DNA of 46,310 nucleotides, taken from the NCBI GenBank assembly GCA_012455605.1, contig GCA_012455605.1_3618.2. One strand, given 5' to 3'. A program made the position numbers and the translations under genes. The stretch's first letter is position 1, and each line of letters opens with the position of its first letter. Below the pieces are notes generated by a model. The model searched no databases, was not told where the DNA came from, and worked only from the letters and a program-made list of their open reading frames with translations. Positions 1,930 to 46,276 of this stretch are shown here, piece after piece. Source of the stretch: a phage.

Positions 1930-2598
1930 ATGGCTGTAGCTTATCCTACAATACCAATTCCAGATCTTGAAGATGCAGAAACAGTCCTGAGTGATGACTT
2001 CTTGGTTGTCAACCAGACTGATGGGACAAGAAAGGCTAAGATTGATGATGTTGTCAACGATCTCAGCATTACTAAAATAGTCTATTTCACAGAGGGTGGT
2101 TATCTTAAGAGCAAGAAGGACTTTGCTTATGATCCAGAAACTAAGCGCTACTACACGTGGAACGGGGATTATCCTAAAATAATCCTCCCAGACTCCACTG
2201 TAGAGGGTGCTGGGGGTGTGTCTGCAAATGCCTGGTCTGTTTTTGGTGAGCTTGCTGCAACTTCTTCTGGCAGAATAGTTGATTACGGATCTATAGGTGG
2301 TCAGCTTGATATGGATCTTGAAGTTGCAGATACCTTTAAGGTTCGACTAACTTCAAATACCACAATCTCTTTTGAAAATCAAACAGAAGGTCTTGAAGGG
2401 GTGGCGAGAACTATAACCGTATGCATTACTCAGACCTCTGGCGGCAACAAAGTCTATTGGCCGGGTAATGTTAAATGGTCCTACGGAAGAGATCCTATCC
2501 TAACATTTACAGCTGGTGCAACAGACATTTTCAAGTTGGAAACCTACGACAACGGGTTAACTTGGTACGGGGCACTGATTATCGCAGGAGCTATCTAA
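1930..2598 (+). CDS. Tail fibre/adaptor protein with conserved N-terminal anchor domain
   Basis: RBS taaggagaaatc then ATG. First ~100 aa (LEDAETVLSDDFLVVNQTDGTRKAKIDDVV...FTEGGYL...DFAY) are homologous to the N-terminus of the 5233 fibre. Short (222 aa), immediately followed by gene 2600. Confidence 0.55.
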   Translation: MAVAYPTIPIPDLEDAETVLSDDFLVVNQTDGTRKAKIDDVVNDLSITKIVYFTEGGYLKSKKDFAYDPETKRYYTWNGDYPKIILPDSTVEGAGGVSANAWSVFGELAATSSGRIVDYGSIGGQLDMDLEVADTFKVRLTSNTTISFENQTEGLEGVARTITVCITQTSGGNKVYWPGNVKWSYGRDPILTFTAGATDIFKLETYDNGLTWYGALIIAGAI

Positions 2599-2599
2599 G

Positions 2600-5197: not shown

Positions 5198-5202
5198 CAT
5201 AG

Positions 5203-5222
5203 GGGGCTGTTTGCCCCCTTTC
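5203..5222 (+). terminator. Putative intrinsic terminator/attenuator after gene 2600
   Basis: Hairpin GGGGGC-tgttt-GCCCCC followed by short TTT; overlaps RBS of next gene, so may be partial. Confidence 0.4.
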
Positions 5223-5232
5223 AGGAGAAAGA

Positions 5233-29747: not shown

Positions 29748-29760
29748 CAAGGGGGTAAAT

Positions 29761-29793
29761 AAAAAAAGGGGCCGTTTGGCCCCTTTCTTTTTA
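29761..29793. terminator. Bidirectional intrinsic terminator between convergent blocks
   Basis: A7-GGGGCC-gttt-GGCCCC-TTTCTTTTTA: perfect 6-bp GC stem flanked by A-run upstream and T-run downstream, between plus gene ending 29747 and minus gene ending 29797. Confidence 0.85.
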
Positions 29794-29796
29794 TAG

Positions 29797-29997
29797 TTAG
29801 TAATACTCCCAACATGCCCCATCTTCAGACGGCTTGACGCGCTTACCTTTATGGTCAACATAGGTATAGCCACAACCTTCACAAATAACAGGTGCTGCAT
29901 AGCCTTCCTTCCACTGATCCTCAGTGATCAGACCTTCCAAATCTTTGCAGTCAAAGCCAAACAACTCTTCAGAGCAATCTTTACAAAAATCAGCCAT
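29797..29997 (-). CDS. Small zinc-ribbon protein
   Basis: 66 aa with CxxC...CxxC (CKDC ... CEGC) spacing; ATG with GAGGA RBS; last gene of the minus-strand cassette. Confidence 0.5.
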   Translation of the reverse strand: MADFCKDCSEELFGFDCKDLEGLITEDQWKEGYAAPVICEGCGYTYVDHKGKRVKPSEDGACWEYY

Positions 29998-30000
29998 TTA

Positions 30001-30447
30001 TCAGTCCTCGCATTTAACAAATTTTTCTACAGATCCACCAAGCACAGCTTGTTGTTTGATGGCACTTTCTTCATCATAGTGGATAGACTTATGTTCCGTA
30101 CCTCCAAACTTACCTGTGTGGAAGGTGTGCACCCAAATCTCTTTAGGAAGGGATTTATTCTCTTCTTCCACCAACTCCCACATTCCCCATAAGTGATCTG
30201 TGATATCTCTGATGAAATATCCCTCGCCGAGGTTTGTATTCACACTATAAGCTGATTCGTGATCTCCACAAATATAACGGAAGGCGGTGTACTCTTTCCC
30301 TGGCGTGAAGTGGGTATCCATTAGTATAGCTGTTAAAGAATTAGGGTCTCGAAATCCCAAAAACTTTAGTTTAACAATTTCGACGTTCACATTTGCAAGA
30401 TTATCCATGACGATCTCCCCTGTTTGGTTGGTGAGATAATCATACAT
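30001..30447 (-). CDS. Hypothetical protein
   Basis: 148 aa ORF; its stop is adjacent to the start of the Zn-ribbon gene; no family recognised. Confidence 0.5.
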   Translation of the reverse strand: MYDYLTNQTGEIVMDNLANVNVEIVKLKFLGFRDPNSLTAILMDTHFTPGKEYTAFRYICGDHESAYSVNTNLGEGYFIRDITDHLWGMWELVEEENKSLPKEIWVHTFHTGKFGGTEHKSIHYDEESAIKQQAVLGGSVEKFVKCED

Positions 30448-30545
30448 AGATCTGATGTTGGGGTCAAGCTTAATTTTAAACGATTTTGGGGAGGTATTTT
30501 GTTCAGGAGGGTAATCACATAAGGTAGGGCAATTTATGAAGGCAC

Positions 30546-30563
30546 AGGCCTCGTTTGAGGCCT
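30546..30563 (-). other. Intergenic stem-loop without U-tract
   Basis: AGGCCTC-gttt-GAGGCCT perfect 7-bp stem, 10 nt downstream of the stop of gene 30573-30953 on the minus strand. Confidence 0.4.
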
Positions 30564-30572
30564 TAAAACAGA

Positions 30573-30953
30573 TTATGACGCTTTGACGTAGCGCTCTGAC
30601 AAAGCTGGGAAGCCAAAAGCAGCACCTACACTACCGTACGCTATCCACCATTGAAGTTCATCGTGACACCATTTTCCGATCAGAAAGGTGCTTGGGTAGC
30701 GGGTCAGTATTTTGGCATAAGCTTTAGGGTCTGCATCTTCTGGGATAATGATGCTTGGAACATCTTTGTTGTGACCACAGCAGCAGTTTAGAGTTTTCAA
30801 TCCTGCTGCCCATAGACTCATAATAGGCTTAACCATGCACTTATCAAGGCACACACGTTTTTTGCCGTCACGGAGCTTTTTAGGCACATCAACGATAACA
30901 TTTGGATGCTTGGCACCTTTCACTTTCCAATTATAGGATTTACACTTGCACAT
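30573..30953 (-). CDS. Cys-rich putative zinc-binding protein
   Basis: 126 aa; MCKCKSY...CLDKC...NCCCGHN cysteine clusters; GGAG RBS 9 nt upstream of ATG. Confidence 0.5.
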   Translation of the reverse strand: MCKCKSYNWKVKGAKHPNVIVDVPKKLRDGKKRVCLDKCMVKPIMSLWAAGLKTLNCCCGHNKDVPSIIIPEDADPKAYAKILTRYPSTFLIGKWCHDELQWWIAYGSVGAAFGFPALSERYVKAS

Positions 30954-31080
30954 TTAATCAGTCTCCGTCTAGAAAGCTATGTAACTAAAAATGACGCACA
31001 AAACTACCTAGCAATGCAATCTTATACCTGCGGTGAGTTAAGTGCGCTGCAGGGGCTCCTGTTGCGTTTTAAGTCATATC

Positions 31081-31251
31081 TTACTTAAAGTCTTTATCAC
31101 CTGCCACGATTGCATGAATCCACTCATTGTGATGCTCAATAGCGGTGAGATGTAGCATGATGTAGTGATCGTCATTGCCAAACATGGTATGATAGGCTTT
31201 GGCAGCATTTTGATATAACTTCCACATCAGGTAATGATATCTTCGCCTCAT
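31081..31251 (-). CDS. Small His-rich protein (56 aa), absent from the ORF track
   Basis: Hand translation of the minus strand gives MRRRYHYLMWKLYQNAAKAYHTMFGNDDHYIMLHLTAIEHHNEWIHAIVAGDKDFK. ATG lies 5 nt after the stop of the HAD-like gene, GGAG 8 nt upstream; fills an otherwise ~300-bp gap. Confidence 0.35.
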   Translation of the reverse strand: MRRRYHYLMWKLYQNAAKAYHTMFGNDDHYIMLHLTAIEHHNEWIHAIVAGDKDFK

Positions 31252-31256
31252 GGCTC

Positions 31257-31721
31257 TTACTCCGGTTCAGGATCTGGGTAATCTTCAATAATAAAGGGCC
31301 ATCCGTTCCGCTTAGCCTCAGACTTATACTCGATCTCCTTCATTGCAAACTCTAACTGATTCTTAGCCGGAATACATGCCGGAGAATCATCAATCCAGAT
31401 ATCTGGGTAGATATCAAACTGCGCCAGATAGGCTGCCTTCTGAACACCACCAGTATAAAACACACCAACATTGAGCTCCTTGCGCCAATACTCGATGTCT
31501 ACATTGTCTTGAGTAATGAATCGGAAAGTCACAAGGTAGACTGTCCACCCCTCTTTCTTCAGATCCCTGATCAGGCGGGAGAAGATGAAAGGGCTCGCAT
31601 TAAACGTTCCATCAAAGTCAATGGCAATGATGTGCGTGCCGTGGCGAGTCTCATATGGATTGCTTGTGGTAAGATTGCTGTAGTTAAAAGGGACCTCTTC
31701 CCCGCAGTAGCTGTAGTCCAT
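31257..31721 (-). CDS. HAD-superfamily hydrolase (phosphatase/nucleotidase-like)
   Basis: Motif I IIAIDFDGT, Thr in VYLVTF, Lys in GGVQKAAY, motif IV IWIDDSP. Start set at ATG 31721 (track GTG at 31727 overlaps upstream stop). Confidence 0.6.
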   Translation of the reverse strand: MDYSYCGEEVPFNYSNLTTSNPYETRHGTHIIAIDFDGTFNASPFIFSRLIRDLKKEGWTVYLVTFRFITQDNVDIEYWRKELNVGVFYTGGVQKAAYLAQFDIYPDIWIDDSPACIPAKNQLEFAMKEIEYKSEAKRNGWPFIIEDYPDPEPE

Positions 31722-31723
31722 AT

Positions 31724-31999
31724 TCACACCTTCTCGTTGATAAATTTACGGGCGGTTTGGTGAGTTGTTTCTGCTGTCTTCAGAATAATATTAATTTTAT
31801 CGTCAAGATCATTCATCTCAGCAGTTAATTCAGGAATCTCTCCGGCATGCATAGTGAAATCATACATAGACATGCCCAGAATCTCATTGATGCGACGGTT
31901 GCATTCTGCAGCACGCTGGTTCATTTTCCAAGCTAACACCAAAGCCTCCTGCGTAGCCTCTAGTGCAAAATCTAATACGTCGGCCTCTTCTTTCGTCAT
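31724..31999 (-). CDS. Hypothetical protein
   Basis: 91 aa, AGGAG RBS 8 nt upstream of ATG; coupled to the HAD-like gene. Confidence 0.5.
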   Translation of the reverse strand: MTKEEADVLDFALEATQEALVLAWKMNQRAAECNRRINEILGMSMYDFTMHAGEIPELTAEMNDLDDKINIILKTAETTHQTARKFINEKV

Positions 32000-32054
32000 C
32001 TCAGTTTCTCCTGTTGTATTGTTGGTAGGTGTATGAATACCTTATATCTCACTT

Positions 32055-32621
32055 TTATTCAAACTGCAATAGCAAGTCCACCACCGCACTAGGCCTGTCA
32101 ACAAATTCCCCAGGCCCACATGCCCATAGAGGGTATCCATCAACATACCGCCATATCCAACCTGCAGTGTGAAGCTCAAGCAGGGCAGTGCCGTCCTTAC
32201 TGTCAACCACCCTTTCCCACAGTGTTGGGCAGCGAAGCTTGAGAATCGGGTCCCCGCCCTTATACCCATCCATGTAGATACCCATTGCAAAGTTCAGCAT
32301 CATCTTTTTGTGCACTGATCTCTTACTGAGGGTGCTCATCACTTCCTCTTTGTGAATGTTTGTAAGCTTCTCTTTGGCTACCCGCAGATCATTGCAACCA
32401 TTGTTCAGCAGATCTTCCAGACACTTGATCCGAAGGTCGTGAATGTCTTTGTCGTGTACAGTTGGCACGGGGTCGTAGCGGTATAGCACCGTTGATACAA
32501 GGTTGCTCGGGTGTGGGTCTGACAGCAACCCATAGCCCCAATACTCTTCTGTATCTGAAAGGACAAGACACCCAATGTCTCTGTCAAGCTTTCCTGTGTT
32601 GTAAGCCACATTGACCGCCAT
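32055..32621 (-). CDS. Hypothetical protein
   Basis: 188 aa ORF with GGAG RBS; no family recognised. Confidence 0.5.
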   Translation of the reverse strand: MAVNVAYNTGKLDRDIGCLVLSDTEEYWGYGLLSDPHPSNLVSTVLYRYDPVPTVHDKDIHDLRIKCLEDLLNNGCNDLRVAKEKLTNIHKEEVMSTLSKRSVHKKMMLNFAMGIYMDGYKGGDPILKLRCPTLWERVVDSKDGTALLELHTAGWIWRYVDGYPLWACGPGEFVDRPSAVVDLLLQFE

Positions 32622-32623
32622 GA

Positions 32624-32869
32624 CTATAGCTCCACTAGCAAAGTGCTTTCAAAGTGCCGTTCATGCAAACCGTTGTAAGGGACCACTTCCACAACGCCAT
32701 CACGGACATATGGGGCCATCATGGTGGTATAATCTCCAAACGGGTTGGTATTGTCACTAACCACAACCACCTTCTGCCCTTCCTTGGCAGAGTGCCAAAT
32801 AGATCTGCACTTCATCAGGTGTTCGAGAGCCCCAGGTAAAATTTTGTTACGTTCTTTACGGGTCTTCAT
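32624..32869 (-). CDS. Hypothetical protein
   Basis: 81 aa; start overlaps upstream stop (ATGA). Confidence 0.45.
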   Translation of the reverse strand: MKTRKERNKILPGALEHLMKCRSIWHSAKEGQKVVVVSDNTNPFGDYTTMMAPYVRDGVVEVVPYNGLHERHFESTLLVEL

Positions 32870-33315
32870 AACAGGTATAGCTCCTTATGAAAGTAGTCTT
32901 TTAATTTCTCACTGAGAAACTTCTTGATACCTTCCTCTAAAGTGTTTTCGATGTAGTCCAGCTTAACTGCTTCGATGGACATATCATAGATCGCCAGCTC
33001 TAAGCTGTCAAGTCCCATCATAGCATGAACCATAAGATTTTCATCTTCAGATACATTCAGGGGACTTCCTATAACATCCGTAGGGAGGATAGTTTCCCAA
33101 TTATTCTGGGGGGTAGTTCTCCCGCCATCCACTTTACGGCGCAGTTCGAAGGTGTTCTTAGTGTAGAACACTTCATAAGAAACGATACGACTATCGCTCT
33201 CATAATAAACGAAGTTCAGGTAGGAGCCTAGCCGCAGTCGGCAAACTTCTACCCCAAACCATTGTTTCTTATAAGAATTCAGGCTAATGCTGTCACATTC
33301 ACGTTTGCTCAACAC
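32866..33315 (-). CDS. Hypothetical protein
   Basis: 149 aa; GTG start 6 nt after AAGGAG. Confidence 0.45.
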   Translation of the reverse strand: MLSKRECDSISLNSYKKQWFGVEVCRLRLGSYLNFVYYESDSRIVSYEVFYTKNTFELRRKVDGGRTTPQNNWETILPTDVIGSPLNVSEDENLMVHAMMGLDSLELAIYDMSIEAVKLDYIENTLEEGIKKFLSEKLKDYFHKELYLL

Positions 33316-33330
33316 GGCTCTCTCCTTTTG

Positions 33331-33564
33331 TTAATCTTCGTAAATCAGGATTTCTGCTTTAGGTTTTCGTGCTTTCAGGTCCAGCTCTATCCAGTGCACC
33401 ATAGCTGTTTCAAGAAAAACAGCTTGGATGCATCCGTCCTCAGCGTGCCCCACCAACATAACAAGATCTTCACCTTCGTCATCTGCATCACGAATATACA
33501 GAATCTCTCCAGATTCAAAGTCTTTCACAACCTGATTGCTGGATAATTTACGAATTTTTGCCAT
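33331..33564 (-). CDS. Hypothetical protein
   Basis: 77 aa; ATG 1 nt after upstream stop; acidic. Confidence 0.45.
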   Translation of the reverse strand: MAKIRKLSSNQVVKDFESGEILYIRDADDEGEDLVMLVGHAEDGCIQAVFLETAMVHWIELDLKARKPKAEILIYED

Positions 33565-33565
33565 A

Positions 33566-33829
33566 TCAGAAACCCTCTAAAAAGCTCTTGTAGAAAATAA
33601 TTTCAGTGTCCACACCTGTCACGATCTTATCGTTTCGGATCTCATCTGTGAGGTAGGTGTCAAAACGCAGAACCTGTGTGGTGTTGTCACACATCCACTC
33701 AGCTGTGACCATTGCGAAAATCTTAGCATCTTCATTATCTGGTGTGAATGTTACCACCTCACCACACTTAAACTTTTCGATAGGTTGAGTGTTGGCTTTC
33801 GGTTCTGCGATAGTGATTTTTGTGGTCAT
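33566..33829 (-). CDS. Hypothetical protein
   Basis: 87 aa; TAATG overlap with upstream gene. Confidence 0.45.
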   Translation of the reverse strand: MTTKITIAEPKANTQPIEKFKCGEVVTFTPDNEDAKIFAMVTAEWMCDNTTQVLRFDTYLTDEIRNDKIVTGVDTEIIFYKSFLEGF

Positions 33830-34095
33830 TACTCTTCCTCCATAGTTTCACCAAATACTTCGATACGAGCATCGAGCTCGGTTGCTTTCAGCTCCCCAAC
33901 AAAATCTTTTAGTTCTTTCTCGTCCAGATCGTAAGCCCACACACAAGAAGAACATGCAGATTTCACAATCAGCAGCGTAGATATACGGCCTGACTCCGTG
34001 ATCATGCTCACAATGGTTCCTACAGGGAACGTGTTGATAGCTTTTTTAACTGGGCGTTCAGCTTTGATTACTACCTCTGTTGTCATAAATAACAT
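33829..34095 (-). CDS. Hypothetical protein
   Basis: 88 aa; alternative in-frame ATG at 34086 has better RBS spacing. Confidence 0.4.
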   Translation of the reverse strand: MLFMTTEVVIKAERPVKKAINTFPVGTIVSMITESGRISTLLIVKSACSSCVWAYDLDEKELKDFVGELKATELDARIEVFGETMEEE

Positions 34096-34101
34096 CCTCT
34101 C

Positions 34102-35562
34102 TTACTTAGCGTACTCGATTAATTCCACAGTTTTCCCAAAGCTCGGAATATAATTTTTATTATACCCTTCGGTGAGAACCCATAGAGTATCGTACTTTTT
34201 CCACTTGTTGTCAACAGCCTTTTGTTCAAAGTTATGCTCAAAGTATAGGTCGGTCAGGACGATGACATCTTTTGCATTCGGTATGTTAGCATCCAGATAC
34301 TCGAACACGCAAGCAGCTGTTGTGCCCCATGTTGAGTGGACCTCATAGTTAATCATCTTGTCTATGTTGCCGCGAGTGTATACTTTAACCTCTCCAACCT
34401 CAGTTGACCAACAGAACATTGTAACCTTAAACTCTTTATACAGATTGCACAATCCGGTGATTTCATTGAACATTTTCTTTAAAGTTCTTTGAGAGATCGA
34501 GCCAGAAACGTCTAAAGCCACCACAATATCTATAGTGTTTTCCGGATTACGACCAGGAACAATAACGTGCTGGTTCTTGTTTATAGCCCCAACTTTTCGC
34601 ATTGTGCTGGTCAAAGACCCAGATCGGCGACCAGGTTTTCTGTAGGTCAGTTCAGCCTTTCGTTTAGACAACATGCGTTGCTTAATGATGTCTATATAGT
34701 TGATTACAGGCTTACCTCTGTTCTTGACAAACTCACGCACCGCCTCAGGGCAACGGCCTCCGGACGCTTGCATTGCTGCCTCCAGCATATCACCAGAGTC
34801 CTGCATGGCCTGATCTTTATCAGATTGGCTGATTACAGGTTGTGGCTGATCATACCCCATAGCTTTTCCAAGATCATCACTAGTGCCACCGTTACCACTC
34901 ATGTGATCGTCGGTTTGTCGTTTATCTCCTTGAGAGTTCTTGCCTTTACCGTTCTTACTTTTACCGCTATTCTGATCTCTTTGCTTATCAAGAACCGCAT
35001 AGACGTTCTCAGCAATCCATCCATGGAACCTCATGTCACAGTAGCAACTAGCTAAGAATCCAAAAGGCTTACCTTTCACGAACGTAGTGCTTTTCCCCTT
35101 CGGGAAGAAAACACAAGGAGGCTTGCTAAAGTCAACCACAAGACCTGTGTTGATAACGTGATCACAAGCAATATTGAACAGTTCCGGCTCAAAGCTTTTA
35201 CCACGGACCAGGTGATCACAGATAATATGCCCCACCTCATGTGACAGAAGGAAGGCCACCTCTTTCACAGATTTTGGGGAATAGAAAACTTCAGCCATCT
35301 CAAACTGCTCGTCAGTTAGAGAAGCCTTAAGAATAGTCTTGCGTTCATCAGCCAATCCCATAATGAACTCAGGACTGTAATAAATGCGTTTATGGTCGGT
35401 TGCCATGGTGGAGCACCATGTGTGGTTTTCTACGAACTGCAACCCTGACAGTAGTGTGCCATAAAACGGCAGCTTTTCAAGGAGATACATACGTGCAGCC
35501 TGTAACATTCTCAGGGCATCATCTTTCTGTGAGGCAATGATTTCTGAACTTCTGCTATCCAT
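34102..35562 (-). CDS. VWA-domain protein with N-terminal HExxH metallopeptidase-like domain (DUF2201-type)
   Basis: HEVGH at 35227-35241 (minus); VWA MIDAS motif ALDVSGSIS at ~34501-34530, downstream Thr and VIVLTDLYFE. Central Gly/Ser/Lys/Asp-rich linker. Start set at ATG 35562 (GGAG 5 nt upstream); track TTG start at 35583 sits in a hairpin. Confidence 0.7.
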   Translation of the reverse strand: MDSRSSEIIASQKDDALRMLQAARMYLLEKLPFYGTLLSGLQFVENHTWCSTMATDHKRIYYSPEFIMGLADERKTILKASLTDEQFEMAEVFYSPKSVKEVAFLLSHEVGHIICDHLVRGKSFEPELFNIACDHVINTGLVVDFSKPPCVFFPKGKSTTFVKGKPFGFLASCYCDMRFHGWIAENVYAVLDKQRDQNSGKSKNGKGKNSQGDKRQTDDHMSGNGGTSDDLGKAMGYDQPQPVISQSDKDQAMQDSGDMLEAAMQASGGRCPEAVREFVKNRGKPVINYIDIIKQRMLSKRKAELTYRKPGRRSGSLTSTMRKVGAINKNQHVIVPGRNPENTIDIVVALDVSGSISQRTLKKMFNEITGLCNLYKEFKVTMFCWSTEVGEVKVYTRGNIDKMINYEVHSTWGTTAACVFEYLDANIPNAKDVIVLTDLYFEHNFEQKAVDNKWKKYDTLWVLTEGYNKNYIPSFGKTVELIEYAK

Positions 35563-35595
35563 TAAAACTCCAGAAGGGGCCAATGGCCCCTGTCA

Positions 35596-36636
35596 TTATT
35601 TAACGTGTTTGAAAATACCTGCCAACTCGGTCATTGTCATGCGGGTGGTCTTCATAAGATCTGTCATAGCTTTCTCCATAATTGGAGATACTACCATAAA
35701 GTTTCCTTTAGTGAAACCTTTATTCCAGTCGGTCACCAACAGTGGTTTAAGTCCAGATCCGAGACGTTCACCAGTTAAAGCACAGCATTTGCGAATATAC
35801 GAACTCTTAAATTGGCTGAACGACAGATCAACTTTCATACCTGCATCGTAGAACGTTTGACAATAGAAAGTGTAAGCCTTAGCAATCTCAACATCATCAG
35901 GCAGTGCAGGAACTTCTTCTGCAATCTCCTCTTCGACCTCCTGAGGCTCTTTTTCCTCTTCAGAGTTCTGTTCTTCAATTTCTTCTGTCACAGTCTCGTT
36001 TACGATGTCTGAAATGTGTTTGTTGGCTGCACGATCAGCCATGAAATTTTTAAAGTCCTGCATTGGTGACATATCTTCCTCCTCTTCGTCAAATAGTGCT
36101 AGTTTATCTTCCTCTGTCCCGTATTGCAAGATGAAGTCTTCAAAAGTATAATCACCTTTCAATTTCTCCATACGCTCTTCGCTCAGGTGGAGCATCATCT
36201 GCTGGACAATTTTTCTATCAGTTTTGTCTTTTATCAAGATTGCAGTCTTTTTATCTACCAGACAGTCCTTCAGAGCGTTGCACCTCAATCCCACCACACA
36301 ACAATTATCAATTGAGTAAGGACCTTCATCATCTATCCGCTCTAGGGAGGGGTAGAAAGGATTTCCCAATCCGTTTTCATCTGTGTGCATGTCAAAAGGT
36401 ATAAGGGTATAGTCGCATACTCCATCTCCTAAAAGTTTTTTACCAAATAGGAGGTATTCTTCCCATGACAGGTCGAACTCTATATCCCGTTTCCGTGCAT
36501 TATTCTGTTTGCGTCTATATTTTTTGAGCAGGCGCTCTAACTCTTCTGGTGTATAATATTTTTCAAGATTCATGAGTTGTCTCTCGTGCTCTGTAAGTGA
36601 AGAAATCGTATCAATTGTCTTAACAGATGTCAACAT
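35596..36636 (-). CDS. HNH-like domain protein with tandem duplicated domain and acidic linker
   Basis: First copy DIEFDLSWEEYLLFGKKLLGDGVCDYTLIPF...PSLERIDDEGPYSIDNCCVVGLRCNALK matches the phage HNH pattern (..F.L..EE...CxYxG...PSLDRIDN.KGY...N...CC..CN..K). Second, degenerate copy VDLSFSQF...KCCALTGERL...PLLVTDWNKGFTKGNFMVV. Glu-rich low-complexity segment between. First gene of the minus block. Confidence 0.5.
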   Translation of the reverse strand: MLTSVKTIDTISSLTEHERQLMNLEKYYTPEELERLLKKYRRKQNNARKRDIEFDLSWEEYLLFGKKLLGDGVCDYTLIPFDMHTDENGLGNPFYPSLERIDDEGPYSIDNCCVVGLRCNALKDCLVDKKTAILIKDKTDRKIVQQMMLHLSEERMEKLKGDYTFEDFILQYGTEEDKLALFDEEEEDMSPMQDFKNFMADRAANKHISDIVNETVTEEIEEQNSEEEKEPQEVEEEIAEEVPALPDDVEIAKAYTFYCQTFYDAGMKVDLSFSQFKSSYIRKCCALTGERLGSGLKPLLVTDWNKGFTKGNFMVVSPIMEKAMTDLMKTTRMTMTELAGIFKHVK

Positions 36637-38944: not shown

Positions 38945-39214
38945 ATGTTATACCAGCAGTACGAACTTCGTGCAGAAAAAGAATTAAATTTTGACAAAGA
39001 TATCCACAGATATTATTATGGGAAAGTTAGAGGGCAATCAAGAAAGTGTACTCCAACACTCTTTTATGCCAGCAGACGACTAGCTCCAGAAGAGGCAACA
39101 GCAGAAAGGGTTGCATATGGCTGGAGAGTTGCGTATGATATTGACAGATCCGATGTGATGTCTGTTTTGGAAAACTTTGAAAACACTTACACACAAGTAG
39201 AGGACTTTTACTAA
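38945..39214 (+). CDS. Hypothetical protein
   Basis: 89 aa; AAGGAG RBS; stop overlaps start of ATPase gene (TAATG). Confidence 0.5.
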   Translation: MLYQQYELRAEKELNFDKDIHRYYYGKVRGQSRKCTPTLFYASRRLAPEEATAERVAYGWRVAYDIDRSDVMSVLENFENTYTQVEDFY

Positions 39215-40398
39215 TGTCAAGAAACGTATTCGAAAGTGGTCAAATCACTGTCCGCGAGTTGCCAGCTATTATTCAATTTGCCCAGCGTCATAACCGATCT
39301 GTCCTGATTTTAGGACCGATGGGTGTGGGGAAGAGTCAGGTGATGAAGCAGATTGCTGATAATATGTTCGGTGAGCGAGATGACAACCTGGTTGACGTGC
39401 GGCTGTCAGATAAAGATCCTGCTGACCTATCTGGACTACCTATCCCTGTAGAGGCAGATGGAACTACACGCACAGTGTTTGCAATTCCAGAATTTTGGCC
39501 TGCAGACTCGGACTGGAGCGGAATTATCTTTCTGGATGAGCTTACTCATGCAGATAACTACCTGCAGAAGGTTGCAATGCAAATTATGCTCGACCACAAG
39601 TGCGGCACCTATGCATTTCCTAAGGGCTCTGTTTTTGTAGCTGCAGGTAACCGTGCTACAGATGGTGCTGTTCTTTCAGCGCTCGAAGCTCCTCTGGCTA
39701 ACCGCTTTATCATTGTAGAAGTTACAAGCAATGCAGAGGTATTTATTGAGGACTACGCATTCCTTAATGGTGTGCATTCCTCTGTAATTGGATATCTGAA
39801 AAGAGTTCCATCAGCTATCGATAATTATGAGGCTATGGCTGAGATTAATTGTCCGTCTTTTGCCACACCGCGATCTTGGGTTGCTGCATCTGACATCCTG
39901 CACGATTTTGACAGCGGTATTATTTCTGACGCTATGGCTCGTGTTCTTCTGCAAGGTGCTATTGGTCACACTGCAGCGGTAGAAATCTGGACCTACCACA
40001 CCAAGAAACGAAACTTGCCAGAAATCGGTCGGATTATGGCAGGGGGTTGCAAAGAATATGTAGGTCCTAAGCAGCCAGATATCTTGTGGATTCTTGGGTC
40101 TGAAGGTTGTATTGCTATTCGGAATATGATGGAAAATGCAAGTGTCTCAGACGAAGATCTTGTTAGCTGCGTGGCAAACTTCCTCGATTTCCTTTGGGAA
40201 AATTTCAAAGATGAAAACCGAGACTTTGTATTCTCAGTCTTTATGGCGATGATGAAGCCCAACGCCCTGGGAAATGCCTTACTTATTGGTAAAGGCCGGG
40301 ACAAGATCGTTGCTCAGCTGATCAAAGCATATCCAAACCTGATGAAGATTGTAAAAGAGTTTGGTGAAGAGTTTAGCGCCATTTTAGCTAAAGCTTGA
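39214..40398 (+). CDS. AAA+ ATPase, MoxR/AAA_5-like
   Basis: Walker A LILGPMGVGKS (39313-39336), Walker B IIFLDELTHA, sensor region VFVAAGNRATDG, and ALEAPLANRF matching the AAA_5 C-terminal signature. Confidence 0.7.
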   Translation: MSRNVFESGQITVRELPAIIQFAQRHNRSVLILGPMGVGKSQVMKQIADNMFGERDDNLVDVRLSDKDPADLSGLPIPVEADGTTRTVFAIPEFWPADSDWSGIIFLDELTHADNYLQKVAMQIMLDHKCGTYAFPKGSVFVAAGNRATDGAVLSALEAPLANRFIIVEVTSNAEVFIEDYAFLNGVHSSVIGYLKRVPSAIDNYEAMAEINCPSFATPRSWVAASDILHDFDSGIISDAMARVLLQGAIGHTAAVEIWTYHTKKRNLPEIGRIMAGGCKEYVGPKQPDILWILGSEGCIAIRNMMENASVSDEDLVSCVANFLDFLWENFKDENRDFVFSVFMAMMKPNALGNALLIGKGRDKIVAQLIKAYPNLMKIVKEFGEEFSAILAKA

Positions 40399-40788: not shown

Positions 40789-40802
40789 TTTCTAAGACAC
40801 AC

Positions 40803-40828
40803 CCCGCTTCGGCGGGGATTTTCTATTT
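40803..40828 (+). terminator. Intrinsic terminator (UUCG tetraloop hairpin)
   Basis: CCCCGC-TTCG-GCGGGG followed by ATTTTCTATTT; same 16-mer as at 14565. Confidence 0.75.
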
Positions 40829-40837
40829 GGAGCTATT

Positions 40838-41338
40838 GTGAAAATTAAGATCTTTGCTATTATTTTGAGCGCATTTTTATCGCTGCCTGTTGTTGCAGCA
40901 CCAAAACAAAAAGTATATCACACCTGCAAGCCGTCGGATACTAAGGAAAACATTCTAGCATGCAATATCTACAGGGAGGCTAGAGGGGATGGCACGATGG
41001 GTATGCTGGCATCAGGGTTTGCCACACTAAACAGGAAATCTCACCCCAAATACCCGGACACCATAAGAAAGATTGTCTACCAACCTAACCAGTTTTCGTG
41101 GACAAACCACGGCAAAACTTTTAAGGTGACAGAAAAAGATTCATGGGATCACGCTAAAAGTCTTGCAAAGATGCTTCTAAAGGTCTATAATAATAACCAT
41201 GTTGCATACATGGCTATGGATATAACAGGTGGAGCAACACACTACCATACAACAAAAGTACGACCGAAATGGGCAAAAAAGATGCAGAGGACAGCTCAAT
41301 TCGGGAGTCATATCTACTACAAGGAGCGCAATAAATGA
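40838..41338 (+). CDS. Secreted cell-wall hydrolase, SleB/CwlJ (Hydrolase_2) family; candidate endolysin
   Basis: GTG start 5 nt after GGAG. N-terminal signal-peptide-like MKIKIFAIILSAFLSLPVVAAP. Core NIYREARGDG...ATLNRKSHPKYPDTIRKIVYQPNQFSW...GGATHYHT...FGSHIYY matches the SleB-type pattern. Confidence 0.7.
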   Translation: MKIKIFAIILSAFLSLPVVAAPKQKVYHTCKPSDTKENILACNIYREARGDGTMGMLASGFATLNRKSHPKYPDTIRKIVYQPNQFSWTNHGKTFKVTEKDSWDHAKSLAKMLLKVYNNNHVAYMAMDITGGATHYHTTKVRPKWAKKMQRTAQFGSHIYYKERNK

Positions 41339-43317
41339 TTGTAAACAGCAATGAAACTAAAGCGGTGCTAACTGGGAATATGGAGGTAACCAGGGGATCA
41401 ATTTCCCTGAACAAAGAGACTTTTGGACTAATCATTAAAGGGATTTATGAAGATAAGGTGCTGGCAAGCTGCCGTGAACCAATCTTCAATGCTGTGGACT
41501 CTCATGTTGAGTCTGGACGGGGTGATGTACCGATCATCATTCACTCTCCTACAGATCTTGAGCCCTATTTCTTTGTGCAGGATGTTGGCCTCGGTATGTC
41601 AGAAGAGATGGTCCGCAACACTTTCATGAACTTGGGTGAATCCACCAAGCGCAACAGTAATGCCTTGGTAGGCAACAAAGGTGTTGGTTCAAAGGCCCCG
41701 TTCAGCATGGTAGACACTTTCGATGTAATCAGTGTGCACAACGGTGTGGAAAGCACATACCTATTGTTCTTGGACCAGGGTATCCCAAATGTCACCAAGA
41801 TCCGTGAGCGGAAGACTGAAGAGCACAATGGGGTAAAAGTTCAGTTTCATGTTAAGAAAGAGCATGTTCTGAAATATCGCACCGCCATTGCATCATGTTT
41901 GCGCTATGCAAAATTTCCGTTCACTGTCACCGATCCGATGACGAGCAAGATGCTGGAGGGAGACAAAGTAGAGGCGCAGTATTATTATGAAAAAGATGGT
42001 TGGAAGATGACCATCCTGAAGGGCTATACTAGCTCTGACGAGAGTCGTGTGGTAATGGGTCACCAACCTTACCGTTCTAAGTTCCTGGAAACACTAACAG
42101 ATTATCCTGCAATTTGTGTAGAGATCCCTATCGGAGATTGCAATATTAACCCAGGGCGTGAATGGACCATAGAAGGTCACGACGATGGTGGATTCCAAGA
42201 GCGTTTGGAAGCTTTTGTCAAAGAAGGCATTCGCCTTCGTGGAGCAGAAGTTGTTGCAGAACTGGAGACAGCAAAAACATCCTCAGAAGCACGCGAGATG
42301 ATGAAGAACAGTGGAGTGTTCGGGCACATTTTCGGTAAGAATTTTATGTATGACCGCTGGGAAGAAACAGGGCTAGGGAATTTGGGGGACTGCGAGATCT
42401 TCGCTGGCGGCTTAAATAAAGGCCGCATAGGTTACGCCTGCTACGGAAAGGTAGAATTCTTACGGGGAGTTTATTTAGTATTTAACGACGGAGACGGCAA
42501 ATATAACCGGAATAAGTGTAACTACTTAAGCGAGATCACCGGACGCAACGTTTTCTATTGCCGTAACACGGATCTGGTGGAAGAGTTTAAAGAAGCGGCA
42601 CACCACCCGTTCTTTGCAGATACGGTCAAATTGTTATCAGAGCTCCCTCGCCGACCTGCGAAGAAAGGTGAAACAAAAACTCATTACGAGCCAGGTTATT
42701 GGGTTAAAAAGCTTGAGAAGGATGGTTACTTCCGTCGTGAACGTATTACTAAGGCAGAGTTCAAGAAGATTAAGCACTGCATTCCTTATGAGGGTGATAT
42801 CCAACGTGGAAGTTGTTGGCTGGGACAGCTGAGTAACATCTACCAGCAAAATTATGACCGTGTGCGTGCGGCACTCCAGATTCCTGAAGGGGAAGACCTG
42901 TACCTGGTATCAGAATCCCGTCTGCTTTGGACTAATCCGGATTGCCAGTATGTTACAGAGAAAAATGTGGAACATTTGTTGAAAGAGGACGCCTGGAAAT
43001 TCTTACTGACTCGCGCAGCAAATGAAACTTCATATGACAGCCTGTATAGACAATTAGGGAAAATTATCCCCATGCAGGATTTTGGAAATTATCGGCCACA
43101 TTTCCACAAGTGGGAAGGTAACACCGCGTGGAAGCACAGTGAGCTAAATCATCGTGCCAAAATCTTAATCGCCAACCGGGTTAAGTGCGGAAAGGCCTAT
43201 ATTGCAAGATTGGAAAAGAAATATCCACTTTTGAAGCATGTGGGCTTGAAATATTGGGACACTCCTGCTATGATTGAATACCGTGAACTGATCGATACAA
43301 AGAATAACATCAAATAA
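41335..43317 (+). CDS. GHKL-family (Bergerat fold) ATPase, function unknown
   Basis: N-box EPIFNAVD (41476-41499), G1 box DVGLG (41581-41595), G2 box GNKGVG (41671-41688) in correct order and spacing within the first ~120 aa; 660 aa with unassigned C-terminal ~500 aa. No TOPRIM-like motif recognised. Confidence 0.65.
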   Translation: MIVNSNETKAVLTGNMEVTRGSISLNKETFGLIIKGIYEDKVLASCREPIFNAVDSHVESGRGDVPIIIHSPTDLEPYFFVQDVGLGMSEEMVRNTFMNLGESTKRNSNALVGNKGVGSKAPFSMVDTFDVISVHNGVESTYLLFLDQGIPNVTKIRERKTEEHNGVKVQFHVKKEHVLKYRTAIASCLRYAKFPFTVTDPMTSKMLEGDKVEAQYYYEKDGWKMTILKGYTSSDESRVVMGHQPYRSKFLETLTDYPAICVEIPIGDCNINPGREWTIEGHDDGGFQERLEAFVKEGIRLRGAEVVAELETAKTSSEAREMMKNSGVFGHIFGKNFMYDRWEETGLGNLGDCEIFAGGLNKGRIGYACYGKVEFLRGVYLVFNDGDGKYNRNKCNYLSEITGRNVFYCRNTDLVEEFKEAAHHPFFADTVKLLSELPRRPAKKGETKTHYEPGYWVKKLEKDGYFRRERITKAEFKKIKHCIPYEGDIQRGSCWLGQLSNIYQQNYDRVRAALQIPEGEDLYLVSESRLLWTNPDCQYVTEKNVEHLLKEDAWKFLLTRAANETSYDSLYRQLGKIIPMQDFGNYRPHFHKWEGNTAWKHSELNHRAKILIANRVKCGKAYIARLEKKYPLLKHVGLKYWDTPAMIEYRELIDTKNNIK

Positions 43318-43327
43318 GGAGACCAAG

Positions 43328-44533
43328 ATGATTTTCATCTACGAACATTTCAAAACCCGTAAAGAAGCACGAGACCGCCGTGCAGAACTTGAGAAGAAGG
43401 GTTTCACATGTGCCATTGAGAAAGGCGACACAACCTGGACACTGGCAGTGGGTGCCCCAGAGTTGTTCGATCCTGACCGTGACAGCGTCTGCTACACCCG
43501 TGAGGATTTTGAAACCCGCGAAGAGGCCCGTTTATTCCGCTATGGATTGGAAGATAATGGTAAGTACGCCATGATCTTAGACTTAGGCGAAGGTTCCGTT
43601 AAACGTTGGGGCGTGGTATACCCACTGTGTGTTGTTCACGGTGTGGGGTTCACTGGGGTGGCAATCAAGTCAGAAGAACCTTTAGTAGAAGTCAAAGATC
43701 CGGTGCTGGAGGTGGTTAGCAGTGTGTCTCAGCAACAAACTCGAAGCATCGAGCCTTTGGTAGTTATTTGTGGGGAACTCCTCCAGATCACCTGCAACGA
43801 AGGCATTTTTGAAATTCGCCGCAGCGAAAGTGAGGAAGTTTACCAGAAAGTCTTCGACCATATCTCTGTTCAGGAATATGACGAGGCAATTGGTGAAATC
43901 CTTGTCTGGCTGGAACGCAAGAATGAGTTCACCACACTTGCAGACAACCTGATCATGAAAGATGGTAAGCTCTACTACTACGGTGTAGAGATGCGATCCA
44001 CCATTGCAAAGAAAATTGAGAAAGATTATGCAGACGGAACGCTGGATGACCGCTATGTGAAATTCCTCGTTCGCCTGCTACGCAATCCTTCTGCAAAATC
44101 TGTAAACATGCTCTACGATTTTATGCAGGCCAATGATATTCAGATTGCAGAAGATGGTCGAATCATTTGCTACAAAGGGGTTCAGTTTAACGGCAGCAAG
44201 TGGGTAGATTGGCACAGTGGTAAAGTCCCACAATACCAAGGTGCTTTTGTATCCATGCCTCGTAACTTTGTAGAGGATGATCCTGAAGCTGCGTGCTCCT
44301 ATGGCTTACACTGCGCCAGCAAAGAGTATGCAAAGAGCTACGGCACTGTAATGACTGTCATGGTTGACCCTGCAGATGTAGTTAGTGTGCCATACCAACA
44401 CAATAGCGCTAAGTGCCGTGCATGCCGCTATGAGATTGTGGTAGCTCCGGAAGCACGCAAAGATGGAGACCCTATTGAATATGTAGTTGATCGTGACGGT
44501 AACACTATCGACATTCTTTACGAGGAGGCGTAA
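43328..44533 (+). CDS. Hypothetical protein with tandem N-terminal small domains and Cys/His-rich C-terminal domain
   Basis: N-terminal repeat HFKTRKEARDRRAELEKKGF / DFETREEARLFRYGLEDNGK; C-terminal SYGLHCASKEY...HNSAKCRACRYEIV. Stop overlaps start of helicase (TAATG). Confidence 0.5.
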   Translation: MIFIYEHFKTRKEARDRRAELEKKGFTCAIEKGDTTWTLAVGAPELFDPDRDSVCYTREDFETREEARLFRYGLEDNGKYAMILDLGEGSVKRWGVVYPLCVVHGVGFTGVAIKSEEPLVEVKDPVLEVVSSVSQQQTRSIEPLVVICGELLQITCNEGIFEIRRSESEEVYQKVFDHISVQEYDEAIGEILVWLERKNEFTTLADNLIMKDGKLYYYGVEMRSTIAKKIEKDYADGTLDDRYVKFLVRLLRNPSAKSVNMLYDFMQANDIQIAEDGRIICYKGVQFNGSKWVDWHSGKVPQYQGAFVSMPRNFVEDDPEAACSYGLHCASKEYAKSYGTVMTVMVDPADVVSVPYQHNSAKCRACRYEIVVAPEARKDGDPIEYVVDRDGNTIDILYEEA

Positions 44534-45903
44534 TGGAAAAAGGGCAGTATGATGTAGGCACAGATGCTGCCCTCGTTGCAATCATGAGCGGTGAGAATGT
44601 CTTCGTTTCAGGACCTGCAGGTTGTGGGAAGACGTATCTCATCAACATGATCCAGTCAATGTATGGAGACTCTTGCATAACGGTTGCCCCGACAGGGGTA
44701 GCCGCCTTAAACGTTAATGGAGCAACAGCACACCGAACCTTCGATCTTGCAGCAGGTGTGAGCATGGAGTCGGACTGGACTGCAATAAGGGCAAAAACAG
44801 CAAAGCCTTTGAAAAGTAAGGCATTTACCATCCTGATTATCGATGAAATCTCTATGATCCGTGCTGATAAGTTTATAGAGATGGATAGGAAACTCCGCTT
44901 CCTTCGAAAAAATGACAAACCTTTCGGAGGCATACAGGTCATATTGTTTGGCGACTTTTACCAGGCACCTCCTGTTGTCTCTTCTATGGAGAAGGAGGCC
45001 TACTTCAACTTCTACCATACGGACCTGTGTTGCTATACCGAATCTTGGAAAGAGCTTGACCTCCACAACATAGCCCTAGTAGATCAGTTCCGACAGGAGT
45101 CTATTCGATTTGCCACAATGCTCAACTGTGTTCGTGAGGGTCGTCGCATAAAAGAGGTTGTAGCAGAACTTAATGCTCGCTGTTACAAAGGCGGTGTACC
45201 AACAGATGCTCTCACAATTTGCGCCACTAACAAACAAGCAGAGGAAGTGAATAGAAGGTTCTATGATGCCATTAACGCCCCAGAGAAGGTATACACTGGG
45301 GAAATGAAAGGTAAGTTTCCCTCCACCCTGCCAGTTGAGCAGGAGATGAAGTTGAAAATTGGCATGAAGGTTATGATAACCGCCAACGATGTTGACCCGA
45401 CGCACAAAGTACCTTATTATGTTAACGGAACACGTGCCACGATTGTTAAATTTAAGAACAAGGCGGTGGTGGTGGAGCTTGAAGATGGAACACAGGTTGA
45501 CATAGAGCAAAGGTTGTGGGAGAATAACGAATATAAGCCATCTCAGAGATACAACATTGCAGAAAGGAAGATGGAGAAGTTTATAGAGAGGGTAGTGATC
45601 GGGTCATACAAGCAACTCCCTCTGAAATCTGGGTACGCTGTAACATCTCATAAAAGTCAAGGACTTACGTTAGATTGCTACAACCTAGACCTTGGAAAGA
45701 ACGGAGCTTTCTCTCCTGGAATGACGTATGTCGCTTTGAGTCGGGTTAAGACAATACAAGGAATAAACTTGTTGCGTCCACTAAGAGAAGTTGACATTAT
45801 TGTTGACCCGCGAGTCGTAGAGTTTTACAATACAACATTCCCTGACTTAGACAAAATTGTCAGGAAAGATTTTGAAACCAGAGCCGAAGAGGGGGACGTA
45901 TGA
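44533..45903 (+). CDS. SF1B DNA helicase, Dda/Pif1/RecD-like
   Basis: Walker A VSGPAGCGKTYL (44611-44634), motif Ia VAPTGVAALNV, Walker B ILIIDEISMI, C-terminal YAVTSHKSQGLTLD and TYVALSRVK; 456 aa, similar in size to T4 Dda. Confidence 0.8.
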   Translation: MEKGQYDVGTDAALVAIMSGENVFVSGPAGCGKTYLINMIQSMYGDSCITVAPTGVAALNVNGATAHRTFDLAAGVSMESDWTAIRAKTAKPLKSKAFTILIIDEISMIRADKFIEMDRKLRFLRKNDKPFGGIQVILFGDFYQAPPVVSSMEKEAYFNFYHTDLCCYTESWKELDLHNIALVDQFRQESIRFATMLNCVREGRRIKEVVAELNARCYKGGVPTDALTICATNKQAEEVNRRFYDAINAPEKVYTGEMKGKFPSTLPVEQEMKLKIGMKVMITANDVDPTHKVPYYVNGTRATIVKFKNKAVVVELEDGTQVDIEQRLWENNEYKPSQRYNIAERKMEKFIERVVIGSYKQLPLKSGYAVTSHKSQGLTLDCYNLDLGKNGAFSPGMTYVALSRVKTIQGINLLRPLREVDIIVDPRVVEFYNTTFPDLDKIVRKDFETRAEEGDV

Positions 45904-46241
45904 GTTTGTGGAGAAATATAGTTAACTACGTGTGTGGCAATCCAACTCCTGAAGGGAAGGATGTTGTGATTCACGATTTTACTAAAAGATCTCGTGAAAA
46001 AGATCTACTGCTAACAAAGGTGACTGATAAAGATCCTGTAGTAGGGGACTGGGCAGGTTTTGCGTTTACATCGGACAAATACACCTTTAACAAAGGTGAC
46101 TACCTTGTTGTGGATTTTAACGAAGACATTGAGGGTGCTGAACCTTACTATCAAACCCTTATTGTTGCAGGGTGTGTTAATCTCTCTGCAGGCATGCACA
46201 GTTTGATTCTTTTTGAGCTTGACTCTGAAGACCTTGAGTAG
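45900..46241 (+). CDS. Hypothetical protein
   Basis: 113 aa, ATGA overlap with helicase stop; followed by a GC hairpin. Confidence 0.5.
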   Translation: MSLWRNIVNYVCGNPTPEGKDVVIHDFTKRSREKDLLLTKVTDKDPVVGDWAGFAFTSDKYTFNKGDYLVVDFNEDIEGAEPYYQTLIVAGCVNLSAGMHSLILFELDSEDLE

Positions 46242-46258: not shown

Positions 46259-46276
46259 GGGGAGGCACTCCTCCCC
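46259..46276 (+). other. GC-rich stem-loop after the last complete gene
   Basis: GGGGAGG-cact-CCTCCCC perfect 7-bp stem; no T-tract after it on the plus strand; followed by AAGGAG RBS and an ATG at 46303 of a gene truncated by the window end. Confidence 0.35.

Follow-up and report, generated by a model that had tools for sequence, protein, structure and literature searches.

A probable rII locus followed by a Pif1-family helicase gene in an rV5-like Vequintavirus

The T4 rII genes and their counterparts in the window

The best described relatives of the genes considered here are rIIA and rIIB of phage T4, whose products are protectors from prophage-induced early lysis that are dispensable on ordinary hosts and required on hosts carrying lambda RexAB. 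Knock-down of RIIA or RIIB by CRISPRi-ART in the phages T4, MM02, EdH4, SUSP1 and N4 lowered the plating efficiency only on RexAB hosts (PMC11879866), and transposon insertions in T4 rII gave the same Rex-conditional result, the genes being non-essential when Rex is absent. RIIB of T-even phages has also been described as the trigger of a bacterial CARD-gasdermin system (PMC10312443) and of Tmn (PMC13001434). Here, we analyse a stretch of phage DNA of 46,310 nucleotides (nt), contig GCA_012455605.1_3618.2 of GenBank assembly GCA_012455605.1, which we call the window, and in it three consecutive open reading frames (ORF1 to ORF3) that encode a GHKL ATPase, a second protein of 401 amino acids (aa) and a helicase of superfamily 1B (SF1B). 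We propose, with a probability of roughly 90%, that the first two of these genes are the rII locus of an rV5-like Vequintavirus and that the third encodes a replication-type helicase.

An initial annotation, made from the letters of the sequence without database searches, had placed the three ORFs correctly, all of them on the plus strand, and had described the second as an unknown protein. Profile searches give both of the first two genes a name. The product of ORF1 matches the PHROGs profile phrog_612 ("RIIA lysis inhibitor") with E=2.9e-124, its residues 1-658 lying on positions 1-724 of the 725 in the profile, and in BLASTP against the proteins of T4 (AF158101) it shares 28% identity with rIIA over aa 1-198 (E=3e-21); Pfam finds HATPase_c_3. 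We identify ORF1 as rIIA given this homology to the whole-protein profile, a GHKL domain that can be aligned with that of T4 rIIA and a position directly upstream of rIIB, the order being the same in T4. For ORF2, which we identify as rIIB, the profile phrog_609 ("RIIB lysis inhibitor") matches with E=1.3e-61, and T4 rIIB is 37% identical over aa 172-371, about 200 residues of the core (E=4e-39). The protein is 100% identical to rIIB of rV5, and a fold search of BFVD with it returned 31 significant named matches, almost all of them RIIB, with E-values down to 1e-53. The conserved rIIB core is also recognised as PF26926 (Phage_T4_rIIB) on an identical protein, P0001, and on all of its listed homologues; this assignment is a precomputed annotation in a large protein collection, and the family name comes from the gene tables of the homologues.

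The source phage can be assigned in a similar manner. The 4.6-kb region is 90-99% identical in nucleotide sequence to 121 deposited phage records, nearly all of them Escherichia Vequintavirus (rV5-like), and in many of these the three genes are labelled rIIA, rIIB and DNA helicase. In MaxTheCat (BASEL), for instance, bas57_0065 to bas57_0067 are called "membrane integrity protector rIIA/rIIB" and "DNA helicase", while in rV5 (DQ832317) ORF1 is rIIA, ORF238 is the rIIB protector and ORF237 is a putative helicase. The predicted proteins are 97.1% (rIIA), 100% (rIIB) and 99.8% (helicase) identical to those of rV5, and the remainder of the window, a tail-fibre and baseplate region plus early genes, is collinear with a close Vequintavirus relative. 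To judge from these comparisons, the window comes from a Vequintavirus, that is, an rV5-like E. coli myovirus. EdH4 belongs to the same genus, in the species Vequintavirus murica, whose type phage Murica is 91.5% identical in nucleotide sequence to rIIA of the window, and the conditional phenotype of T4 is the one shown in EdH4. The locus is thus already known and annotated, and experiments in EdH4, of the same genus, have already demonstrated the conditional anti-RexAB role of rIIA and rIIB.

Within the genus, rV5 and other phages such as MaxTheCat and EdH4 have the same locus with shared flanks (the MoxR ATPase, the SleB-like hydrolase and the 113-aa ORF), and rV5 differs at the allele level only. 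This divergence is uneven, rIIA being 90.7% identical at the nucleotide level and the hydrolase, rIIB, helicase and 113-aa ORF 97-98%, which looks like a recombinant (mosaic) rIIA segment.

As a discovery, the locus is minor, since it is annotated in many Vequintavirus genomes, and our additions are modest: a model of rIIA with an SRE motif, and mini-domains in rIIB in place of the helix-turn-helix of T4. Nevertheless, for those who still study rII some seventy years after Benzer, three details may be of use. The predicted GHL ATPase and transducer of rIIA, with its universal SRE motif, suggests clear point mutants (E48, N52 and R275); the conserved core of rIIB is without a solved structural relative; and the N-terminal module of rIIB appears to be swappable, T4 having a helix-turn-helix where the window protein has two SPOR-like mini-domains.

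Domain architecture of rIIA and rIIB

The three canonical GHKL motifs reported by the initial annotation are all present in rIIA, as EPIFNAVD (aa 48-55), DVGLG (aa 83-87) and GNKGVG (aa 113-118), and they are conserved in the rIIA proteins of nine phage lineages. The N-terminal GHKL ATPase is shared with T4 rIIA, where the motifs occupy identical positions. In the nine-lineage alignment, E48, N52 and D55 of the N-box, D83, G85 and G87 of G1 and the lid of G2 (G113, G116 and G118 in the window) are invariant, as is the SRE motif (R275-E276) of the second domain. The structural model suggests that rIIA would be a complete GHL-type ATPase, with a Bergerat fold, a transducer-like domain and intact nucleotide-binding residues, followed by a C-terminal half that varies between lineages. 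Pairwise similarity to T4 rIIA ends at around residue 198, and the C-terminal halves of the two proteins align at the profile level only. The second domain resembles the transducer of GHL ATPases such as Hsp90/TRAP1, MutL, MORC and GyrB/ParE/topoisomerase VI-B, and by analogy with these the SRE motif is a candidate gamma-phosphate sensor, whose counterparts would presumably be R380 of Hsp90 and K337 of GyrB. A sequence search of solved structures returned only marginal matches to rIIA, namely topoisomerase 3-beta and TRAP1 with E of about 0.07-0.1, and the NCBIfam matches (Hsp90, sacsin and BbrUII) were all below threshold.

Phage GHKL ATPases had been assumed in the initial annotation to be topoisomerase subunits as a rule, a premise to which rIIA is the textbook counter-example, being a well-known phage GHKL protein without a TOPRIM partner (PMC7824862). 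The accompanying observation that no TOPRIM partner could be recognised was right. One could imagine that ORF1 encodes the diverged ATPase subunit of a DNA-manipulating enzyme resembling type II topoisomerases, with a cleavage partner that has escaped recognition. The gp39/gp60-type large subunit was looked for and not found: BLASTP against T4 gp39 shows no similarity (E=0.74), no GyrB or topoisomerase family of Pfam is matched, neither the Pfam scan nor the rIIA model shows a TOPRIM domain, and no TOPRIM/5Y-CAP partner, such as would go with the ATPase subunit of a type IIA topoisomerase, is encoded nearby. Furthermore, the match of ORF1 to the rIIA profile is full-length, and the annotation of a close relative lists no topoisomerase gene in the 46 kb that align. 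We regard a topoisomerase as an extremely improbable explanation of ORF1 and retain rIIA.

In rIIB, the duplicated N-terminal mini-domains claimed by the initial annotation could be confirmed in two ways. The alignment of aa 5-25 with aa 58-78 scores 44, compared with 19.9 +/- 3.9 in shuffled sequences, none of 2000 of which reached this value, and the AlphaFold2 model (mean pLDDT, the per-residue confidence, 72.9, with most of the core at 80-95) contains two strand-helix-strand-strand units. Both carry the motif F-x-[ST]-R-x-[ED]-A-R. They resemble SPOR domains, but they do not combine a score above the curated cut-off of PF05036 with its four-stranded, RNP-like strand-helix-strand-strand-helix-strand fold. 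T4 rIIB begins instead with a helix-turn-helix (HTH_7, E=5.6e-5), whereas the window protein has the two mini-domains and a linker (aa 100-141) that the model predicts to be disordered. Because only 131 of the 2878 phage records with an rIIB homologue cover at least 80% of the protein, this N-terminal module is lineage-specific, the mini-domains being confined to the Vequintavirinae and close relatives.

The rest of the protein is the conserved core, for which no solved structural relative was found. The sequence search of solved structures gave only a marginal match of rIIB to influenza M1 (E=0.16), and NCBIfam gave no match. The C-terminus had been called Cys-rich, which overstates the case, as the last 80 residues hold four cysteines; C323, C363 and C366 are invariant within the subfamily, and T4 rIIB keeps the equivalents of C323 and C366 only. 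A zinc-binding cysteine cluster was considered and rejected, since just two of the four cysteines are common to T4. There is no convincing transmembrane segment in either rIIA or rIIB, and the hydropathy maximum of rIIB (1.69, aa 95-113) is not conserved in relatives. A separate curiosity is P0005, a protein of 498 aa from a 3.3-kb ENA contig in which TPR repeats are joined to the C-terminal 55% of rIIB with 99% identity; it is probably a chimera of assembly or gene calling.

The helicase, the conserved gene order and the role of the rII pair

The third gene had been described as a Dda/Pif1-like SF1B helicase, and its assignment to SF1B and to Pif1 stands, while a close similarity to Dda does not. 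The Pfam family PIF1 (PF05970) matches ORF3 with E=9.3e-33 and 114.1 bits against a cut-off of 25.9, and solved Pif1 helicases of bacteria and eukaryotes match over nearly the full length with E=1e-64 to 1e-48 (for instance, PDB 8bns at 1.1e-64, 5fhd at 2.2e-59 and 6s3e at 1.1e-52). The profile phrog_325, named "Dda-like helicase", matches as well (E=1.7e-111), but T4 Dda itself shares only 27% identity over 172 aa in BLASTP (E=8e-6), too little for the Dda type, and is absent from the 20 PDB matches at E<=1e-3. A Walker A motif, GPAGCGKT (aa 27-34), and a Walker B motif, LIIDE (aa 101-105), are followed between motifs II and III by the stretch DRKLRFLRKNDKPFGGIQVILFGDFYQAPPV, which we take to resemble the published Pif1 signature and which fits membership in the family. 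ORF3 is thereby placed, on its sequence, in the Pif1 family of SF1B helicases, far nearer to Pif1 than to T4 Dda. The match to the bacterial Pif1 of Bacteroides (PDB 5fhd/5ftb) is nearly full-length (aa 21-413, E=2e-59), with all of the SF1B motifs present in ORF3 and a weak match to the Pif1 2B domain; unlike the bacterial protein, ORF3 is phage-encoded and lacks accessory N- or C-terminal domains. The Pif1 helicase that follows rIIB in a KP12-like Klebsiella phage contig (7236-9518) has 760 aa against 456 in the window, that is, around 300 extra residues.

We compared the neighbourhoods of rIIB in ten phage lineages. In nine of them, the gene immediately upstream of rIIB is rIIA (Vequintavirus, Seunavirus SSE121, Felixounavirus radambza, Kuttervirus Se-J, Rhodobacter phage RcXuper, the N4-like PGN829.1, the crAss-like cr116_1, Microbacterium phage Pumpernickel and Vibrio phage F100), and in T4 the two genes are neighbours across the ends of the linear record. 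Phage RB43 goes further and carries a natural RIIA-RIIB fusion of 1049 aa (BFVD Q56C47), which reinforces the view that the pair is a unit. The existence of this fusion also explains why phrog_609, a profile of 1055 positions named RIIB, is matched by the N-terminus of ORF1 in addition to ORF2. Thus, the synteny expected by the initial annotation was found for the rIIA-rIIB pair in all ten lineages, whereas a helicase in third place was found only in the Vequintavirinae and close relatives. Conservation as a functional unit is limited to rIIA and rIIB, and the helicase lies outside this module. In the uncultured crAss-like cr116_1 (MT774389), the rIIA homologue seems to be split by an inserted endonuclease gene (2471-5677), with the N-terminal GHKL part at 2471-2848, the endonuclease at 2923-3636 and the remainder at 3980-5677.

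It could be argued that the Vequintavirinae use the three proteins as one machine, in which rIIA and rIIB would recruit or regulate Pif1, for example at a membrane-attached replisome. The TAATG overlap couples rIIB to the helicase, and SSE121 (helicase 50% identical), KP12-like Klebsiella phages (rIIB 35%) and a metagenomic group (rIIB 48%) share the order rIIA-rIIB-Pif1; moreover, according to a recent preprint (PMC13001434), RIIB belongs to the replisome and anchors it to the membrane. However, no Pif1 gene was found within 6-7 kb of rIIAB in the eight lineages outside the Vequintavirinae clade (T4, Felixounavirus, Kuttervirus, RcXuper, and the N4-like, crAss-like, Microbacterium and Vibrio phages). 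T4 has, in place of a helicase, the topoisomerase genes 60 and 39 next to rIIA, and denB and ndd next to rIIB. Within the clade, the wider neighbourhood is collinear, with the hydrolase upstream and a DnaB-type helicase and a polymerase downstream, and therefore inherited gene order explains the adjacency of rIIB and the helicase, shared ancestry alone predicting a conserved order. The tight coupling also extends to an unrelated hydrolase and to the 113-aa ORF. We find such a machine improbable, and it is more reasonable to expect that the Pif1 helicase comes from the adjoining block of DNA-replication genes, is a neighbour of rII in this lineage only and most likely serves replication or recombination of the phage DNA independently of rII.

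For the pair itself, we propose that rIIA and rIIB would be co-translated from their tightly coupled genes and, given their invariable adjacency and the fusion in RB43, would act as one unit or complex. The fold of rIIA suggests an ATP-driven, dimerising clamp. By analogy with EdH4, the two proteins of the window would be dispensable on ordinary hosts and would permit growth on hosts with the abortive-infection system RexAB of lambda. The suggestion of a distinct DNA-manipulating or anti-defence machine in the initial annotation was right in its anti-defence part, which is the published role of rIIA and rIIB, and mistaken in calling it distinct. A phage-borne defence system was also considered, and it is unsupported, since the defence-system models of PADLOC match neither rIIA nor rIIB and give only generic SF1 matches to the helicase.

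Four points weigh against the proposal of an rII locus with an independent helicase. The RexAB phenotype is transferred from EdH4, through the 91.5% identity of Murica in rIIA, and does not come from this phage; the clamp and the complex are steps that we infer; the pairwise similarity to T4 rIIA is confined to the N-terminal 198 residues; and the helicase is translationally coupled to rIIB in an order that holds down to 35% identity in rIIB, so that a functional link between helicase and rII is possible within the Vequintavirinae clade.

A further question is whether countering RexAB is the main task of these proteins or a side effect of some other one, be it a housekeeping role during infection (in membrane integrity, in energetics or in attaching the replisome) or counter-defence of a wider kind, directed at systems other than Rex. 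The 2878 records with rIIAB include phages of Streptomyces, Microbacterium and Caulobacter as well as crAss-like phages, all with hosts in which lambda Rex is unlikely to be present, and RexAB hit just two to three of the BASEL phages (PMC8594841). In addition, HIDEN-SEQ in a clinical isolate placed the Bas37 orthologues of RIIA and RIIB among the genes most depleted of insertions, and Aravind and colleagues have regarded rIIB as a transcription factor and rIIA as part of a poorly understood counter-defence system. On the other hand, the knock-downs in five phages caused no defect when Rex was absent, and the T4 rII insertions were likewise non-essential without Rex. On balance, we consider the side effect to be the less likely case, though one to be taken seriously, and keep protection from RexAB as the working role of the pair.

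The coupled gene block and its surroundings

The coordinates of the locus and its flanking features are collected in Table 1. The initial annotation had drawn the boundaries around three genes, which is arbitrary, because the hydrolase gene overlaps the start of rIIA and the 113-aa ORF overlaps the stop of the helicase; the coupled block comprises five genes (40838-46241) and is flanked by hairpins. The junctions are all tight. The TGA stop of the hydrolase overlaps the rIIA start codon as ATGA. Between rIIA and rIIB there is coupling, as had been claimed, but no overlap: the TAA stop of rIIA (43315-43317) is separated from the rIIB ATG by 10 nt, and an AAGGAG Shine-Dalgarno sequence spans the stop codon and extends into this spacer. 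The TAATG overlap of rIIB and the helicase is present as described, at 44531-44535.

Table 1. Predicted features of the coupled block and its flanks (positions in the window)
Feature	Position	Strand	Details
Terminator-like hairpin	40802-40817	+	CCCCGC-TTCG-GCGGGG then ATTTTCTATTT; 6 G-C pairs and T-run
SleB/Hydrolase_2-type cell-wall hydrolase	40838-41338	+	166 aa; Pfam Hydrolase_2 E=2.1e-19
rIIA (ORF1)	41335-43317	+	660 aa
Putative Bergerat-fold GHKL ATPase and transducer-like second domain (GHL-type)	41335-42180	+	rIIA aa 1-282
rIIB (ORF2)	43328-44533	+	401 aa
Two tandem strand-helix-strand-strand mini-domains, SPOR-like or EHEE-like	43334-43624	+	rIIB aa 3-42, 56-99
Low-confidence, length-variable linker	43625-43750	+	rIIB aa 100-141; pLDDT 23-27; indel-rich alignment columns
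Conserved rIIB core	43751-44530	+	rIIB aa 142-401; invariant motifs include NPS.K.V.MLYDF, CS.GLH, VDPADVVSVPY
Pif1-family SF1B DNA helicase (ORF3)	44533-45903	+	456 aa
113-aa ORF	45900-46241	+	ATG overlaps helicase stop (ATGA)
G+C-rich hairpin	46259-46276	.	GGGGAGG-CACT-CCTCCCC; directly after block; T-run on minus strand only

The first hairpin is likely to be the upstream limit of the block or an attenuator of it. The hydrolase begins with a hydrophobic, signal-like segment (mean Kyte-Doolittle value of 2.29 over 19 residues, aa 3-21) and is called SleB, cell wall hydrolase or endolysin in relatives, being the SleB of ORF2 in rV5. A peptidoglycan hydrolase also adjoins rIIAB in SSE121 and the KP12-like phages and lies just downstream in Felixounavirus radambza. 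At the other end of the block, the 113-aa ORF has no match in Pfam or NCBIfam and is kept in Vequintavirus, with 96-97% aa identity in MaxTheCat, VB-EcoM-WM and rV5.

In a further scenario, the rII module of the Vequintavirinae would have been rewired: the mini-domains would have replaced the helix-turn-helix of rIIB, perhaps with a different ligand or partner, and translation would have been chained to the hydrolase with its signal peptide and to Pif1. If this reflected function and not inherited order, rII would link events at the envelope to DNA replication, and one of the two neighbours, helicase or hydrolase, would count as a true third component. Such a scenario is highly speculative, and we hold to an rII pair beside an independent replication-type helicase.

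A promoter scan found 25 promoter-like sites compared with 18.4 +/- 4.4 in shuffled sequences, a modest excess, and no transcription units were drawn from it; one site is of note, as it corresponds to promoter P4 of rV5. This site, the best sigma-70-like sequence of the region (38991-39019, plus strand, TTGACA-17-TATTAT, 11 of 12 matches), sits inside an 89-aa ORF upstream of a gene for a MoxR-like AAA ATPase. The latter (39214-40398, plus strand) lies two genes upstream of rIIA and is labelled MoxR ATPase in MaxTheCat and, as ORF4, in rV5. A gene with the same annotation, bas54_0063 of Bas54 (Vequintavirinae), has been reported to be an anti-defence gene needed against the predicted system DS-28 (2025 preprint), and it is presumably the orthologue of the MoxR gene of the window. 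We also considered a conserved MoxR/AAA partner of rIIAB and rejected it, as the AAA-ATPase beside rIIA in Pumpernickel has no tblastn similarity to the MoxR gene of the window.

Sixteen records (MG0656xx, for instance, MG065644, "Campylobacter phage A147") that are described as phages of Campylobacter jejuni share 93-96.5% identity with the locus, and their host label looks doubtful. Scans of the whole window for tRNAs and Rfam families gave no matches. On the minus strand at 29600-36600, opposite to the rII genes, there are about fifteen small ORFs together with a putative metallopeptidase and an Srd-like anti-sigma factor, and the GC skew reverses over this block.

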